A stretch of 24,000 nucleotides of DNA, taken from NCBI GenBank assembly GCA_041489255.1, contig JBGPQV010000002.1, positions 150,447-174,446 of the forward strand. The letters run 5' to 3'. Origin of the DNA: Thermoplasmata archaeon. Lineage in GTDB: Archaea > Thermoplasmatota > Thermoplasmata > RBG-16-68-12 > JAFNFQ01. The notes below the pieces were generated by a model. The model saw nothing but the letters and a program-made list of their open reading frames with translations. It made no database searches and was not told the origin of the DNA. This document shows positions 2,384-14,189 of this stretch, piece after piece (positions within the stretch are counted from its first letter, which is position 1; every line of letters starts with the position of its first letter). Made by a program: the position numbers and the translations under genes.

Positions 2384-2632
2384 TCAGGGACTTAATCCCA
2401 ACTGATCCTGCCCGGCGTCATTCCCTTCGTCGCCGTCGCAGCAGTGACATTGGCCATGGTTGCCGCCGCCACCGTATGTGCCGTTGTTTCCATCGTGCAT
2501 TCCGCCGCCATTCCCCTGATCACCCATCATCGGGTGGTCGCTCATCATCTGGCCCCCGGACATGGCGACCGCCGTCGTGCCGACGCCCGCCACGGACAGA
2601 GCCGAAAGCAGGGCGATTACCGCAGTGTTCAT
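2384..2632 (-). CDS. Small secreted Met/His/Gly/Asn-rich protein with CHCC cluster (putative metal-binding peptide)
   Basis: The start MNTAVIALLSALSVAGVGTTAVA is a clear signal-peptide-like N-terminus, preceded by GAGGAG about 8 nt upstream. The mature part is SGGQMMSDHPMMGDQGNGGGMHDGNNGTYGGGGNHGQCHCCDGDEGNDAGQDQ. Third codon positions are GC-rich, like neighbouring genes. Confidence 0.6.
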   Translation of the reverse strand: MNTAVIALLSALSVAGVGTTAVAMSGGQMMSDHPMMGDQGNGGGMHDGNNGTYGGGGNHGQCHCCDGDEGNDAGQDQLGLSP

Positions 2633-2684
2633 TGTTGTGTCTCCTCGGCCCACGGAACCCGCAGGCCTCAGGCATCATTATGGC

Positions 2685-2743
2685 TGAAACAGCTTATGAC
2701 ACTGACCTGAAACGAAGTGAAATGCATTTCAGAAGGATGAAAT
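2685..2743. promoter_or_regulatory. Cluster of TGAAAY motifs including 14-bp palindrome TGAAATGCATTTCA (candidate operator)
   Basis: TGAAAC occurs at 2685 and 2708, and TGAAAT at 2718 and 2738. The inverted copy at 2726-2731 makes a perfect palindrome over 2718-2731. All lie in the short spacer between the wHTH regulator stop and the small secreted-peptide gene. An AT-rich CATAATGATG (minus-strand reading, plus-strand coordinates about 2672-2681) could be its TATA box. Confidence 0.4.
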
Positions 2744-3324
2744 CAGGCGGGTTCTGAGGGTTTTGGCGGCATTGTCCTTAGGCGGATCTTGTTCGTCATG
2801 CCGTGCCTTTCGCGGGTCACGATCTCCTTGCCCTCGAGCTTGTCCAGCAGGCGCGTGACCTTCGCCTTGGAGAACGAGCCAGACGCCACGATGTCCTTCT
2901 GGAGCATCTCTCCGCCCCTTTCGCGGATGAGCGCGTAGAGGCGCTTCTCGTCTTCATCCAGCATCTTGAAGAACGCCGCCTCTTGATTGCGGGACACATG
3001 CGGAGCTTCCTGTTCGGGAACTGAAGGGACGGCGGACGAGACCGGATAAGTTGGGGCCATCGTTCCGACGGCTGGAGCCTGATTGATCGTGGGGACATCC
3101 TGGCGGGAAGACATCAGGAAGAAGACCACGGCTACCAAGACGACTCCCAATAGCAGGGTGACCGCAAGCCAGCCAATGCTGAAGCTTCCTCCCCCGCCGC
3201 CCATCATGCCTCCACCCATCATCCCGTTTGACATGAACATCGCGCCGGCGGAGCCTGCGAGAAGGAGTGCCACGAACACCGCCAGTATCACAAGGACAAC
3301 GGTCATCTCTTGGCTTCTCGCCAT
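2743..3324 (-). CDS. Membrane-anchored winged-helix transcriptional regulator (COG2512-like) with Met/Gly-rich loop between two TM helices
   Basis: Predicted TM1 is VVLVILAVFVALLLAGSAGA and TM2 is IGWLAVTLLLGVVLVAVVFFL, with the loop MFMSNGMMGGGMMGGGGGSFS between them. The C-terminus EKRLYALIRERGGEMLQKDIVASGSFSKAKVTRLLDKLEGKEIVTRERHGMTNKIRL is a MarR/TrmB-like wHTH. An alternative ATG lies at 3306. Confidence 0.75.
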   Translation of the reverse strand: MARSQEMTVVLVILAVFVALLLAGSAGAMFMSNGMMGGGMMGGGGGSFSIGWLAVTLLLGVVLVAVVFFLMSSRQDVPTINQAPAVGTMAPTYPVSSAVPSVPEQEAPHVSRNQEAAFFKMLDEDEKRLYALIRERGGEMLQKDIVASGSFSKAKVTRLLDKLEGKEIVTRERHGMTNKIRLRTMPPKPSEPA

Positions 3325-3406
3325 CTGCTTTCGATCTCCTGCCGAGTGAGTGACCTACTCAACGGCATTGTTTAATGTTTGGCAATTCTTGGCGGGATAA
3401 GCCATT

Positions 3407-4135
3407 CTAAATCAGGTCGCCCCGGAAGAACGCAGCTGTCCTGTCATCATCGAGGCGGCGGACCTCGTCAATCGGTCCGCTGCCCAGCACTTCTCCCTGA
3501 TACAGGAACAGACAGCGCTTCGCGAGCCTCTGCGCCTGGAACGGGTTGTGCGAGACCATGACGACCGTGCATCCTGACTTCTGGCGGTAAGTGGCCAGGG
3601 CAGACTCTAGCATTTTGATATTTGACGGGTCCAGGTTCGCTGTGAATTCGTCGAGGAACAGAACCTCGGGCTCGATCGCAATCGCGCGGGCGAACGCGAC
3701 CCTCTGCGCTTCCCCGCCGGAAAGGGTGAAGGCCTTCCTACGCTCGAACCCCTCCAGACCAACATTCTTGAGGGCGGTGAGTACGCGGTCCCGGATCTCC
3801 TTTTCCTGCACTGCCCTCAATCGTAGACCGTAGGCAACGTTCCCAAGAACCGTGTCCCTGAACATCACTGACCTCTGGAGGAGCATGGTCATCTTCCTCC
3901 TCAGCGCCTGGCCGTCCTGGACGGACGATCCGGGGTCACCGAATCTGACCGCCCCCTGGTCCGGCTGCTCGAGGAGGTCCAGGATGCGGAGCAGCGTGCT
4001 CTTGCCGCTCCCGCTCGGGCCCATTATCGCGAATATCTCGCCCGCCTCGACCCTGAAATCCACTTTCGAGAGAACTGCAGAACCGCCGTATGACTTCGAG
4101 ATTCCCGCCGCCTCGACCGCGATCCCCAAACTCAA
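3407..4135 (-). CDS. tupC: ABC transporter ATP-binding protein (tungstate-type, TupC-like)
   Basis: Has Walker A GPSGSGKST, ABC signature LSGGEAQRVAFARA and Walker B VLFLDE. The TTG start overlaps the upstream permease stop (TTGA). Confidence 0.8.
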   Translation of the reverse strand: MSLGIAVEAAGISKSYGGSAVLSKVDFRVEAGEIFAIMGPSGSGKSTLLRILDLLEQPDQGAVRFGDPGSSVQDGQALRRKMTMLLQRSVMFRDTVLGNVAYGLRLRAVQEKEIRDRVLTALKNVGLEGFERRKAFTLSGGEAQRVAFARAIAIEPEVLFLDEFTANLDPSNIKMLESALATYRQKSGCTVVMVSHNPFQAQRLAKRCLFLYQGEVLGSGPIDEVRRLDDDRTAAFFRGDLI

Positions 4136-5774: not shown

Positions 5775-6368
5775 ATGAAGAGCATTGACGCCCTCGTGAA
5801 GAAGGCGATGGATTACAAAAAGAAAGGCCTGAAGGAGGACGAGATAGCAGACGAGCTGCACCTCTCGAAGGACACGATCATCTGGCTGCTGACCCGCGGC
5901 CTGAAGGGCGGCGAGCCGCCTAAGGACGTCAAGATCGGCTGGCGCTCCATCGGTGTCATGGGCAACAGGATAGCGGCGATGGCTTCCTCCATGACCGACA
6001 TCATCCTCGAGGAGACGGAGAAGAGCGGCAACGAGCCGCAGTGCGTCGCCGGCATTGCGATCAACGGCATACCTTATGCCACATGCATATCCGAGGAGCT
6101 GGGGGGCGAGCTGGCGATATACAGGCCCCCGAGCGAGAGAGGGAAGGCGGGCGGTCATTTCTCCAGCAACTACGCCGCGGTTCAAAATAAAAAAGTGATC
6201 TTCGTTGATGACGTCGTGAGCACCGGTGAAACGATGAAGGGCGCGATAGCGGACGCGCGAGCTTCCGGCGGCACTCCGATCCTCGCGGTCGTCTTGGTGA
6301 ACAAGACGGGACAGGACGAACTGGACGGCGTCCCCCTGCGGGCACTCATCCGCGCCAGGTCAATCTAG
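5775..6368 (+). CDS. Orotate phosphoribosyltransferase-like protein with N-terminal HTH (GfcR/PyrE-like regulator family, COG0856)
   Basis: The N-terminal KKGLKEDEIADELHLSKDTIIWLL is HTH-like. The C-terminal VIFVDDVVSTGETMKGAI is a PRPP-binding motif of type I PRTases. Its TAG stop overlaps the GTG at 6368. Confidence 0.7.
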   Translation: MKSIDALVKKAMDYKKKGLKEDEIADELHLSKDTIIWLLTRGLKGGEPPKDVKIGWRSIGVMGNRIAAMASSMTDIILEETEKSGNEPQCVAGIAINGIPYATCISEELGGELAIYRPPSERGKAGGHFSSNYAAVQNKKVIFVDDVVSTGETMKGAIADARASGGTPILAVVLVNKTGQDELDGVPLRALIRARSI

Positions 6369-6376
6369 TGGTGCAG

Positions 6377-7978
6377 ATGCACTGGTTCGACGAGCTCCTC
6401 GGGAATGCGGAGGAGTTCCTTCACGGGCGCGAGAGGGTCCTCTGCAACGCGGGCTTGAGCGTCTCCGGTCTGCAGCATGTAGGCCGTCTAAGAGGGGAAA
6501 TCGCGCTCAACCACGCGATAGTCAGAGCATTGAGATTGAAAGGAAAGAAGGCCTCTCAGAACCTTGTACTATACACGCAGGACCAATGGAAAGGCAAGGA
6601 GGGACAGCTGGGCAGGTTCAAGGCCGGGGAAGGGGAGCAGTACATCGGTCGGAGGCTGATGGATGTCCCGGATCCGGAAGGCTGCCACAGGAACTGGGTG
6701 GAGCACTACTGGGTCGATTTCGGGGACCACCTGGACAGGTTCGCCCCCGGGATAAGCGTGATCAGCACGACGGAGGTCTACTCCCGCCAGGATATGAAGG
6801 ACCTCGTCATCGAGCTCGTGAGCAAGAAGGAGGCCGTGCGGGAGGTGGTGAACAAGTACCGCAGCAGGAGACCCTACCCGTCGGACTGGATTCCATTTGA
6901 GGCTTATTGCGAGAAGTGCCAGCGCGTCGGCAGCGCGAAGACGCTGGAGCTCCTTCCCGATCACCGGGTGCGCTACGAGTGTGAGTGCGGCAACTCCGGG
7001 ATCTCCCCCATCGAGAGGGGGAAGCTGAACTGGCGACTCGAATGGCCGGCCCTGTGGAAGGTCCTGAAGGTCGATGTCGAGCCTTTCGGGAAGGACCACG
7101 CCGCGCCTGGCGGGTCGAGGGACAGCTGCAAGGAAATCGCGCAGAAAATCATGGGGATGGAGGCGCCATTCCCGATCCCCTACGAGTGGGTCGGGCTGGG
7201 GCGGGGAGGGAAGGATCTCGGGGACATGGGCTCCTCCGACTTCATCGGTTTCACTCCGAAACAATGGCTGGAAATCGGCGACCCGGAGGTCATCCGCTAC
7301 ATCTATTTCTTCAACCCGGTCTCGAGGCGGGTGGTCCTCGACTTGAGCAAGGTGGACTCATATCACGACCTCTACGATTCCGCCGAGAGGGCACATCATT
7401 CCGCGAAGAAGAATGAGGAAGAGGAGGTCGCGGCTCGGAGCTTCGAACTCGCGCTCGTCGAGAAGACGATGGAGGAGATGCCGTTCCAGCTCTCATACCG
7501 CCACGCGGCATACCTTTCGCAGATCTCACCGGCTGAGCACAAGGTGAGCTGGTGCATCCAGCGACTGAGGGACACCGGCATGCTCTCCCTGCCTCTCACG
7601 CCGTTCGAGGAGGGCAGGATAGAGAGAAGGCTGACGCACGCTATGAAATGGGTGGAGCTCTACTCCCCCGAGAACAAGGTCATGCTCCTTCAGGAAGTGA
7701 CTCCGAAAGTAATCGAACAGCTCGACGAGAAAGACAGGGAAGCTCTCTCGATGTATCTCGGAGCGGCGGTAAAGACTGAATGGCGGGAGGATGCAATCAA
7801 AGAGTCCATGGTTGCGCTCACAACGAGCGGGAAATTGCCGGTCGAGACTCCTCGCTTCTTCAGAGATCTGTATCTCGTGCTCCTCGGACAGGAAAGAGGC
7901 CCGCGCGCAGCGCCTTTCCTCGCGGTGCTGAAGAAGGAATGGGTCCTGGAGAGGCTGAAGGAGACGGCAAAGGCCTAG
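6377..7978 (+). CDS. lysK: Lysine--tRNA ligase, class I (archaeal type)
   Basis: The N-terminus MHWFDE resembles archaeal LysK N-termini. SGLQHVGRLRGE is a HIGH-like region. CEKCQRVG...YECECGNSG is a Cys-rich zinc knuckle. EPFGKDHAAPGGSRDS and a MGSS (KMSKS-like) region are present. A GTG start at 6368 is also possible. Confidence 0.8.
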   Translation: MHWFDELLGNAEEFLHGRERVLCNAGLSVSGLQHVGRLRGEIALNHAIVRALRLKGKKASQNLVLYTQDQWKGKEGQLGRFKAGEGEQYIGRRLMDVPDPEGCHRNWVEHYWVDFGDHLDRFAPGISVISTTEVYSRQDMKDLVIELVSKKEAVREVVNKYRSRRPYPSDWIPFEAYCEKCQRVGSAKTLELLPDHRVRYECECGNSGISPIERGKLNWRLEWPALWKVLKVDVEPFGKDHAAPGGSRDSCKEIAQKIMGMEAPFPIPYEWVGLGRGGKDLGDMGSSDFIGFTPKQWLEIGDPEVIRYIYFFNPVSRRVVLDLSKVDSYHDLYDSAERAHHSAKKNEEEEVAARSFELALVEKTMEEMPFQLSYRHAAYLSQISPAEHKVSWCIQRLRDTGMLSLPLTPFEEGRIERRLTHAMKWVELYSPENKVMLLQEVTPKVIEQLDEKDREALSMYLGAAVKTEWREDAIKESMVALTTSGKLPVETPRFFRDLYLVLLGQERGPRAAPFLAVLKKEWVLERLKETAKA

Positions 7979-13826: not shown

Positions 13827-14189
13827 ATGAGCGCACCACAGCCGCAGATGAGTCAGCTGCCGATGACTGCCGCATATGATCAAGGCCAGAATCCCGGGCA
13901 GACCTGGGGGCCTCCGATGATGAGCCAGCCGTTCATGGCACCGCCTCGGGTTGGGATGCCACCAAAGACTGGACATGTGCTCGTCCTCATCGGCAATATC
14001 CTCGTTGCGACAGGTGTGATAATCTTGGCGTTTTCATTGACAACGGTGACCTTCGCCATTCAGGACAATCCCAACCCCGACCAGGTTTCGTTAGGCATAG
14101 GAGCGATCTTCCTCACGCTCGGTGGACTGCTTGTCGGCATAGGCTTCCTCGTCAGAAGCTTCGGCGCGTACATGGCCGCAGTCCGGTAG
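13827..14189 (+). CDS. Small membrane protein with Gln/Pro/Met-rich N-terminal tail and two TM helices
   Basis: GAGAGGAAGG precedes the ATG. The N-terminus is MSAPQPQMSQLPMTAAYDQGQNPGQTWGPPMMSQPFMAPPRVGMPP. It is followed by VLVLIGNILVATGVIILAFSL and LGIGAIFLTLGGLLVGIGFLV. Confidence 0.55.
   Translation: MSAPQPQMSQLPMTAAYDQGQNPGQTWGPPMMSQPFMAPPRVGMPPKTGHVLVLIGNILVATGVIILAFSLTTVTFAIQDNPNPDQVSLGIGAIFLTLGGLLVGIGFLVRSFGAYMAAVR

Follow-up and report, generated by a model that had tools for sequence, protein, structure and literature searches.

How could a transcription regulator anchored in the membrane of an archaeon be linked to the small exported peptide encoded next to it, and to what signal would the two respond? 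The question is raised by two neighbouring genes on the minus strand of a 24-kb stretch of DNA (the window, whose positions serve as coordinates here) from an uncultured Thermoplasmata archaeon with a genome of 2.74 Mb. The first gene encodes a winged helix-turn-helix (wHTH) protein with two transmembrane (TM) helices, and the second a peptide rich in Met, His and Gly (Table 1). The original prediction, made from the letters of the window, had taken them for a one-component metal sensor and an extracytoplasmic metal-buffering peptide, or alternatively for helpers of tungstate uptake. Our study suggests that a membrane-anchored regulator, an operator and an exported-peptide target form one unit, which we consider highly likely. 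To the fuller proposal, in which the unit responds to a soft metal outside the cytoplasm and the peptide serves as a metal buffer, we give a probability of roughly 0.55. Comparative sequence analysis provided the evidence for the architecture, for the conservation of the pair and for the operator, including its uniqueness in the genome, and all functional statements made below rest on it as well.

The two genes stay together over a wide range of relatives. An order-level survey of 79 genomes found the regulator in 42 of them and in all 10 genera of the order. In essentially all full-length loci it is followed on the same strand, 76-124 nt 3′ of the regulator, by a small exported open reading frame (ORF) of low complexity, rich in Met and Gly and containing Cys; one locus has a gap of 555 nt. 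The pair is kept in families whose flanking genes differ, and also in other classes and orders of the phylum. In a phylum-wide sample of 401 genomes the regulator is present in only 16, and in 11 of the 14 full-length loci examined the next gene encodes a small exported or membrane protein rich in Met or Cys. Co-occurrence of the two genes in related genomes, which had been named as a check on the pairing, was thus found across families and other classes and also outside local synteny. Small ORFs of this kind are easily overlooked: behind a distant family member, one with a signal segment, a Met/His-rich composition and a GCHCCG motif was missed by the gene caller (L054:7538-7968). Redoxin and VKOR genes lie upstream in this locus, and DUF1573 and an SfLAP-like gene downstream.

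Further evidence that ties the pair into a unit lies in the spacer between the genes. On the coding strand it contains, in order, TTTCA at the stop codon of the regulator, TGAAATGCATTTCA, GTTTCA, a TATA-like stretch and a further GTTTCA. The spacer is 96% identical to that of the same-genus orthologue, against a pS of 0.15-0.20 in the flanking genes, and is therefore better kept than synonymous sites. Its layout is common to relatives whose regulators are only 35-48% identical. Among 32 regulator-to-peptide spacers, the 12-nt core GAAAY-NN-RTTTC of the palindrome TGAAAY-NN-RTTTCA is exact in 25 and near-exact in 5 more, and TTTCA occurs on the same strand 3.2 times per spacer on average, compared with 0.12 times expected per 110 nt. 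The core is found once per locus, always in the spacer and nowhere else, in 15 of 19 related loci totalling 264 kb. In the genome of 2.74 Mb the 14-nt pattern TGAAAYNNRTTTCA has only 2 matches, and no second place has four or more TGAAAY within 80 nt. Five of the 26 TGAAAY sites of the window sit in 2685-2743, and a scan of all 24 kb revealed none upstream of the regulator or of tupA, a gene of the neighbouring tungstate transporter.

Since a clear TATA-like element directly precedes the last half-site in the AT-richer relatives, the array appears to bracket the core promoter of the peptide gene. With the pair conserved and a putative operator array lying exactly between its two genes, the regulator very probably controls the peptide gene, which bears out the one-component transmembrane regulator of an adjacent gene that had been proposed. 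We infer with high confidence that the regulator binds the spacer and has the peptide gene as its principal, and probably sole, target; a single target is argued by the lack of any other site cluster in the genome. A wider regulon was considered and rejected, as the genome has one other match to the 14-nt palindrome (C9:3072) and no second cluster of sites. This match (TGAAACTTATTTCA, G000:C9:3072) lies about 100 nt after a tRNA-like sequence and before an ORF start. Autoregulation through the regulator's own upstream region was likewise rejected, there being no TGAAAY or RTTTCA in 3325-3406. Scans for sigma-70 promoters and intrinsic terminators gave no matches, as expected of bacterial models applied to an archaeal host. 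In loci of another class (L055-L057) the half-site is TTGCA and the recognition helix FSRSKVTR, and in another order (L060-L061) TTTTCA direct repeats occur with MSDAKVSR; regulator and DNA site appear to co-vary between lineages.

The domain that would bind these sites belongs to the Pfam family DUF7343 (PF24034), which matches residues 123-182 of the regulator with 52.7 bits (3.9e-14; gathering cut-off 27.6 bits) and matches its paralogues too. An AlphaFold2 model built with 28 homologues arranges the predicted wHTH in the order helix, helix, strand, helix, helix, wing. We found 142 homologues of the regulator, and the family comprises about 708 clusters when counted at 50% identity with E<=1e-10. 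All of the 17 invariant residues of the regulator alignment (A1) fall inside the wHTH. The tether in front of it varies in sequence and length across the same alignment, and the loop motif MMGGGMMGG is retained in relatives down to about 40% identity.

A hydrophobicity scan of 120 homologues predicts exactly two TM segments in 100 of them. The loops (n=100) have a median length of 15 residues and consist of 30% Gly and 12.6% Met, with MM present in 46. On average the N-tail has 1.36 Lys plus Arg, the loop 0.81 and the stretch behind the second TM helix 2.01, a mild positive-inside bias, and the TM helices of the AlphaFold2 model are 26-30 residues long with hydrophobic cores of about 20 residues. 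Provided that both predicted segments span the membrane, the loop must face outside, because the C-terminal domain must reach the DNA and both helices are of full length. ORF, Pfam match and model thus agree on the wHTH regulator with two TM helices around a Met/Gly loop and a cytoplasmic linker that the original prediction had described, and its outward loop fits the full-length helices, the DNA-binding C-terminus and the charge bias alike. By analogy, the regulator presumably acts on transcription while staying in the membrane, and release by proteolysis is also conceivable.

Assignment of the wHTH to better-known families was tried and rejected. The best Foldseek matches are ArsR/SmtB/MarR domains and are weak (E ~2e-3); no sequence-close solved structure was found, the PDB profile matches to MarR proteins having E values of 0.02-0.1. 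The MarR model PF01047, with 27.1 bits, passes its cut-off of 24.6 but aligns with just 42 residues, all within the wHTH, and the modelled wHTH core (112-182) lacks the flanking N- and C-terminal dimerisation helices of the MarR family. For ArsR/SmtB, the model NF033788 gives 17.8 bits against a cut-off of 55, and the wHTH has no Cys and a single His. The Lrs14 model scores far below its cut-off.

The longest ORF of the second gene extends over 2384-2653 from a GTG, and the ATG at 2632, with GGAG 8 nt upstream, is the more likely start; GGAGG-like sites occur at the equivalent position in most of the related spacers. The approximately 59 exported residues contain QCHCCDGD. Met, His and Gly are concentrated in one half of the peptide, and the CxCC motif and acidic residues in the C-terminal half. 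In an alignment with about 10 sequence homologues (A2), C62, C64, C65 and D66 are invariant and the N-terminal segment is almost wholly so, and the ratio of nonsynonymous to synonymous differences (pN/pS) from the same-genus orthologue is 0.22, next to 0.23 for the regulator. Because the homologues keep these four residues and the pN/pS is 0.22, we regard the ORF as a real gene; the signal-bearing Met/His/Gly peptide that had been read from the sequence is found in both the ORF and its homologues.

A phmmer search with the peptide recovers close relatives only, and the wider set was recognised by position, N-terminal segment and composition, the mature parts being unalignable across lineages. 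Among 14 representative peptides of nine genus-level groups, 11-13 have the residues of the pattern M-x-T...G16-x-G18, and because the N-terminal segments share it we take the peptides to be one family with a fast-changing exported part. CHCC, CPCC or CCGCC lies near the C-terminus in the peptides of five loci (L004, L026, L031, L053 and L054), and those of other lineages have C-x-C-x5-C followed by a YMY[DE]HNY[TS]W-like tail. The N-terminal segment, with a hydrophobic h-region of about 20 residues, an A-V-A end and no basic n-region, is compatible with either signal-peptide cleavage or anchoring. For the peptide, searches of Pfam and NCBIfam at E<=0.1 and of the PDB gave no match. A precursor of a bacteriocin or of a ribosomally synthesised and post-translationally modified peptide was considered as well; neither a modifying enzyme nor a dedicated transporter was recognised beside the pair in the loci examined.

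What the unit responds to is suggested by the way in which loop and peptide vary together. Regulator loops containing MM precede Met-rich peptides, with 10-24% Met in the mature part and 9% in the window's genus. In two clades the peptides have a Met content of 1-2% and abound in Asp, Glu, Gln, Asn, His and Cys, and the regulator loops are without MM, being GRGHWMTGED-like in the clade g4-A and DTGTGGGQGQGGGGDETS-like in g9-A. In a maximum-likelihood tree the two clades are not sisters, and g9-A is nested within the Met-type regulators with a support of 99/97. Since the clades are not sisters, the switch happened at least twice, and two such events are suggestive of a link between loop and peptide composition. 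We would tentatively extend this to a wider proposal, in which a short, low-complexity, outward loop serves as the ligand site of archaeal one-component sensors and is matched in composition to the controlled peptide, giving shared selectivity and direct extracellular feedback. The matching would possibly pair a Met/Gly loop with a Met/Gly/His/Cys peptide and an acidic/Gly/His loop with an acidic/Gln/His/Cys peptide, a scheme that we hold just as tentatively.

The link to copper comes from the paralogues. Within the order the regulators form three branches, namely the window type, type B and type S. Type B loci have the order Lrp/AsnC-TRASH regulator, FTR1 permease, regulator, Met/His/Glu/Cys-rich peptide, DUF1573 and DsbD_TM-like protein, and in genera g9 and g10 they stand beside CopA, a P-type ATPase with two HMA domains. 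Paralogous modules lie inside or beside cop-type clusters in genera g4, g9 and g10. Type S differs in that a SHOCT protein with two TM helices and a GMMG-type loop takes the place of the peptide; DUF1573 and a DsbD-like protein often come next, and 4 of the 15 type-S loci that were fetched have CopA at a distance of up to about 5 kb. The copper islands of Cuniculiplasma, also of the Thermoplasmata, are reported to adjoin SHOCT genes (PMC5498576), and a SHOCT membrane protein is induced by silver in Haloferax (PMC10694973). On the side of the peptide, PcoE and SilE are copper-induced periplasmic metal sponges under the control of CusRS/PcoRS/SilRS, and CopG binds a Cu4 cluster through CxCC and two Met (PMC7558416).

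Several of the paralogous loci have features of their own. The window's genome carries a type-S unit on contig C3 (L002, G000:C3:10514-13822; G000:C3:9554-11528), in which a DUF7343 regulator with two TM helices and a loop of non-Met type is followed by a SHOCT protein, also with two TM helices and with the loop GGYYGMMGTG, and then by DUF1573 and a 443-aa DsbD_TM-like protein; its spacer is without the TGAAAY palindrome. CopA of this genome is on contig C1. In genus g9, two loci (L041:7132-10285 of G073, and L050 of G075) have two complete regulator-spacer-peptide units about 1.5 kb apart, one of the Met type and one of the acidic/Gln type, with an Lrp-TRASH gene between them, CopA nearby and a half-site common to both spacers. 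Cross-talk between the two units is possible, since both spacers use the same half-site. A DsbD_TM/SfLAP-like protein follows paralogous modules at L040:5703-7034, L041:4976-6307 and L051:5009-6316. Its N-terminal soluble domain, with CGEC...EGHVP, resembles DUF411/CopG weakly (Pfam E=0.034), and the protein may be a CopG-like domain fused to a thiol-transfer membrane domain.

From these observations the following mechanism can be proposed. The two-helix membrane hairpin would expose a Gly/Met loop of 13-17 residues outside the cell, and a flexible tether of about 35 residues would connect it to the cytoplasmic winged helix. As a dimer or a higher oligomer, the winged helix would bind the TGAAAY/RTTTCA array, in which the palindrome is combined with phased half-sites. 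The Met thioethers of the loop may bind a soft metal ion, for example Cu(I) or Ag(I), outside the membrane, and the bound metal would probably bridge two or more hairpins. At the operator, the tethered wHTH domains would thereby change in oligomeric state or geometry, which would switch on the gene of the small, presumably disordered exported peptide, the only evident target of the unit. The peptide, whose Met/His/Gly half mirrors the sensor loop, would serve as an extracytoplasmic metal sponge like PcoE and SilE. Since peptide and loop have the same chemistry, it would compete with the sensor for the ion and thereby exert negative feedback.

Several points weigh against this proposal. No member of the window-type branch has cop genes as neighbours within +-7 kb, so that the metal link of the window's own copy is transferred from paralogues with which it shares 35-45% identity. 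The role in metal sensing and buffering claimed by the original prediction is supported only indirectly: it fits the chemistry of the peptide and the paralogues in cop-type loci with CopA, Lrp-TRASH, DsbD-like and DUF1573 genes, and the window's own copy lies outside such a cluster. The loop is very short and has neither His nor Cys, and for this reason a single loop could not form a defined metal site. The N-terminal segment of the peptide, in which about 20 residues are hydrophobic or small, the n-region is without positive charge and G-x-G is conserved, would suit a retained membrane anchor, possibly in contact with the regulator. Met-rich sequence could equally be a sink for oxidants. The co-variation of loop and peptide comprises two independent events only, and activation and repression are indistinguishable in the layout of the array, because the operator flanks the TATA-like element on both sides.

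The anchor-like N-terminus leads to the alternative that survives best. ToxS acts with ToxR, and TcpH with TcpP, as co-components, and the same regulator-operator-peptide unit could work without a metal signal if the peptide were a membrane-retained co-component or feedback ligand, or a secreted, autoinducer-like peptide that contacts the matching loop through its Met/Gly segment. The N-terminal segment of the peptide is better kept than the rest and has the length of a TM helix, the loop and the peptide match in composition, and one paralogous branch has a two-TM SHOCT membrane protein in the place of the peptide, all of which would fit. Unlike in toxRS, however, the peptide gene has its own promoter laden with operator sites, and there is no translational coupling; its C-terminal Cys, His and acidic runs resemble metal ligands rather than an interaction surface, and the paralogues associate with a cop locus. 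We therefore regard a unit without metal as unlikely, although co-component and metal buffer are not mutually exclusive roles.

An oxidant signal is less probable still. Hypochlorite- or peroxide-type oxidants would oxidise the Met residues of the loop and thereby turn on a sacrificial Met-rich peptide. A precedent is reportedly provided by Azospira, where SigF/NrsF is said to control the periplasmic Met-rich peptide MrpX (work of Melnyk and colleagues from 2015), likewise a membrane-bound regulator with an exported Met-rich peptide, and the high Met content of loop and peptide would agree with it. Nevertheless, the unit has no methionine sulfoxide reductase gene nearby, as the genome's sole PMSR gene lies on another contig (C1:253441), and no reductase is among the conserved neighbours that were identified by similarity or Pfam in related loci. 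The invariant CxCC, His and Asp would be superfluous in a Met sink, Met-poor family members share the architecture, and again the paralogues keep company with cop-type genes.

That the pair regulates or assists the tungstate transporter TupABC, as the original prediction had offered for its alternative, is suggested by its place on the tupABC strand, which recurs in the metagenome relatives L004-L006 with an extra gene in between, and can be dismissed as most improbable, because no tupABC accompanies the pair in the window-type loci examined (two other families, f6 and f3, plus a metagenome relative) and no TGAAAY site lies upstream of tupA or the regulator, and because thioether and thiol chemistry is unsuited to the oxyanion tungstate.

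The position of the pair behind tupABC was correctly noted: tupA, tupB and tupC are confirmed by NCBIfam and Pfam, and tupC (3407-4135) is separated by 82 nt from the regulator on the same strand. Among the loci compared, the tupABC insertion is limited to the window's genus and its nearest relatives. The extra gene of L004-L006, between tupC and the regulator, encodes a 757-aa protein of the NosD/beta-helix/fn3 kind (L004:2908-5181). In families f6 and f3 and the metagenome relative (L036, L037, L045-L049 and L052), the pair lies between DUF885/pyrK and gfcR/lysK. The window retains these ancestral neighbours at 588-2333 and 5775-7978, with the convergent DUF885 on one side and the divergent gfcR-lysK on the other, as kept in f1, f3 and f6. 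Further away, 13827-14189 encodes a 120-aa two-TM protein with an N-terminal tail rich in Met, Pro and Gln; it has no significant Pfam match, and no link to the regulator-peptide unit was found.

Table 1. Features of the regulator-peptide unit, in window coordinates.
Feature	Position	Strand	Basis
Membrane-anchored wHTH regulator, 193 aa	2743..3324	-	ORF; DUF7343 match; homologues
TM helix 1, ~residues 3-32	3229..3318	-	AlphaFold2 helix 3-32; hydrophobicity scan
Extracytoplasmic Gly/Met loop NGMMGGGMMGGGGGSFS, residues 33-49 (predicted)	3178..3228	-	Disordered in AlphaFold2 model
TM helix 2, residues 50-75	3100..3177	-	AlphaFold2; hydrophobicity scan
Disordered Pro/Ala/Val-rich cytoplasmic tether, residues 76-111	2992..3099	-	Predicted local distance difference test score (pLDDT) <50
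wHTH DNA-binding domain (predicted), residues 112-182	2779..2991	-	pLDDT ~85
Regulator-to-peptide spacer, 110 nt, with putative operator array and peptide promoter	2633..2742	-	Conservation; layout in 32 spacers
TGAAAT half-site overlapping the regulator stop codon	2738..2743	+	Site scan
14-bp perfect palindrome TGAAATGCATTTCA, core putative operator	2718..2731	.	Genome and locus scans
TGAAAC half-site, 10 nt from the palindrome's first half-site	2708..2713	+	Site scan
TATA-like element (inferred)	~2692-2699	-	Position as in AT-richer relatives
Promoter-proximal TGAAAC half-site	2685..2690	+	Site scan
GGAG ribosome-binding site, 8 nt before the peptide ATG	2641..2644	-	Sequence; GGAGG-like sites in relatives
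Exported peptide gene, 82 aa and stop	2384..2632	-	ORF; homologues; pN/pS
N-terminal signal peptide or signal-anchor (predicted), residues 1-23, ending A-V-A	2564..2632	-	N-terminal conservation
Low-complexity Met/His/Gly/Asp-rich exported part, ~59 aa	2387..2563	-	Homologue comparison
CHCC (CxCC) motif, residues 62-65	2438..2449	-	Invariant Cys in alignment A2

To our knowledge, the archaeal metal regulators (CopR/TRASH, ArsR and MerR types) sense the cytoplasm, and sensing of metals in the envelope is known from bacterial two-component systems. If the wider proposal of a loop matched to its peptide holds, no earlier case of a membrane-bound transcription factor sensing extracellular metal ions in the absence of a kinase would be on record within the literature searched, and the specificity of such sensors could be read from the sequence of the loop. 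If the metal-sensing proposal itself holds, an archaeon would have a minimal route from the outside to a promoter, made of one small protein, one operator and one target gene and conserved in a moderately large family of about 700 clusters. The unit would also give a functional handle on the DUF7343 proteins, and may do likewise for the widespread SHOCT membrane proteins of the sister branch. Small low-complexity ORFs that gene callers skip, such as the one in L054, can be conserved members of a regulon. The parts lend themselves to ready synthesis, the palindrome having 14 bp and the DNA-binding domain, loop and peptide 70, 17 and 59 residues, respectively.

Comparison with known systems places the regulator in a recognised class. 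Transmembrane transcription regulators (TTRs), defined by a DNA-binding domain and at least one TM region in one polypeptide, occur widely, at about four to an archaeal genome (Demey et al. 2023, PMC10269533), and the wHTH and two TM helices of the regulator conform to this definition. The text of that census has no match to 'copper', 'MarR' or 'Thermoplasm'. No description of a regulator-operator-peptide unit was encountered in the literature searched, and the term DUF7343 is in none of it. ToxR/TcpP/CadC and ArnR/ArnR1 of Sulfolobus acidocaldarius resemble the regulator in having a membrane anchor and a DNA-binding domain in one protein, with an adjacent target (PMC10269533; PMC6396743, cited in PMC13286277). 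The regulator belongs to neither type. ToxR and CadC combine an OmpR-type wHTH at the N-terminus with a single TM helix and a folded sensor domain in the periplasm, whereas the regulator has the opposite domain order, two TM helices in an N-terminal hairpin and, as its sole external part, a low-complexity loop of about 15 residues (17 in the window's protein). In ArnR, which controls genes of the archaellum and of pili, the HTH is N-terminal and the TM helices are C-terminal; in the regulator this order is reversed, the TM hairpin being N-terminal and the wHTH, of the DUF7343 family, C-terminal.

The peptide can be compared with PcoE and SilE, which are likewise small, exported, presumably disordered and Met/His-rich, are controlled by an envelope-sensing regulator and have been proposed as a first line of Cu(I)/Ag(I) sequestration (PMC7558416). 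The resemblance concerns composition and presumed role only, as the Pfam, NCBIfam and PDB searches gave no homology; with about 59 exported residues the peptide is shorter, Gly-rich and equipped with CxCC, and its host is an archaeon without an outer membrane. The sensor is a one-component membrane wHTH here, in contrast to the histidine kinase and response regulator of the PcoE and SilE systems. CopG shares with the peptide an extracytoplasmic location and CxCC (CHCC or CPCC) with Met nearby (PMC7558416), but it has a folded thioredoxin-like domain, which a low-complexity, sequence-unrelated peptide of 59 aa could not form, and the peptide has no match to DUF411.

Archaeal cop clusters contain CopR, CopT/CopM and CopA, as in the islands of Ferroplasma and Cuniculiplasma (PMC5498576), and the paralogous modules stand inside or beside such clusters. 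CopR, an Lrp/AsnC HTH protein, senses cytoplasmic metal via TRASH, whereas the regulator has neither a TRASH match nor Cys or an HMA element, and the one candidate sensor that it has faces outward. The suppressor of copper sensitivity (Scs) and DsbD-type systems are thiol-redox systems. Genes of this kind are not beside the window's module, and its own genome has them after the SHOCT-type paralogue on contig C3. Likeness to Scs and DsbD is found at the paralogous modules, which are accompanied by DsbD_TM-like proteins, DUF1573 and, in one locus, VKOR and Redoxin, and this company would link the family to extracytoplasmic thiol and copper stress.

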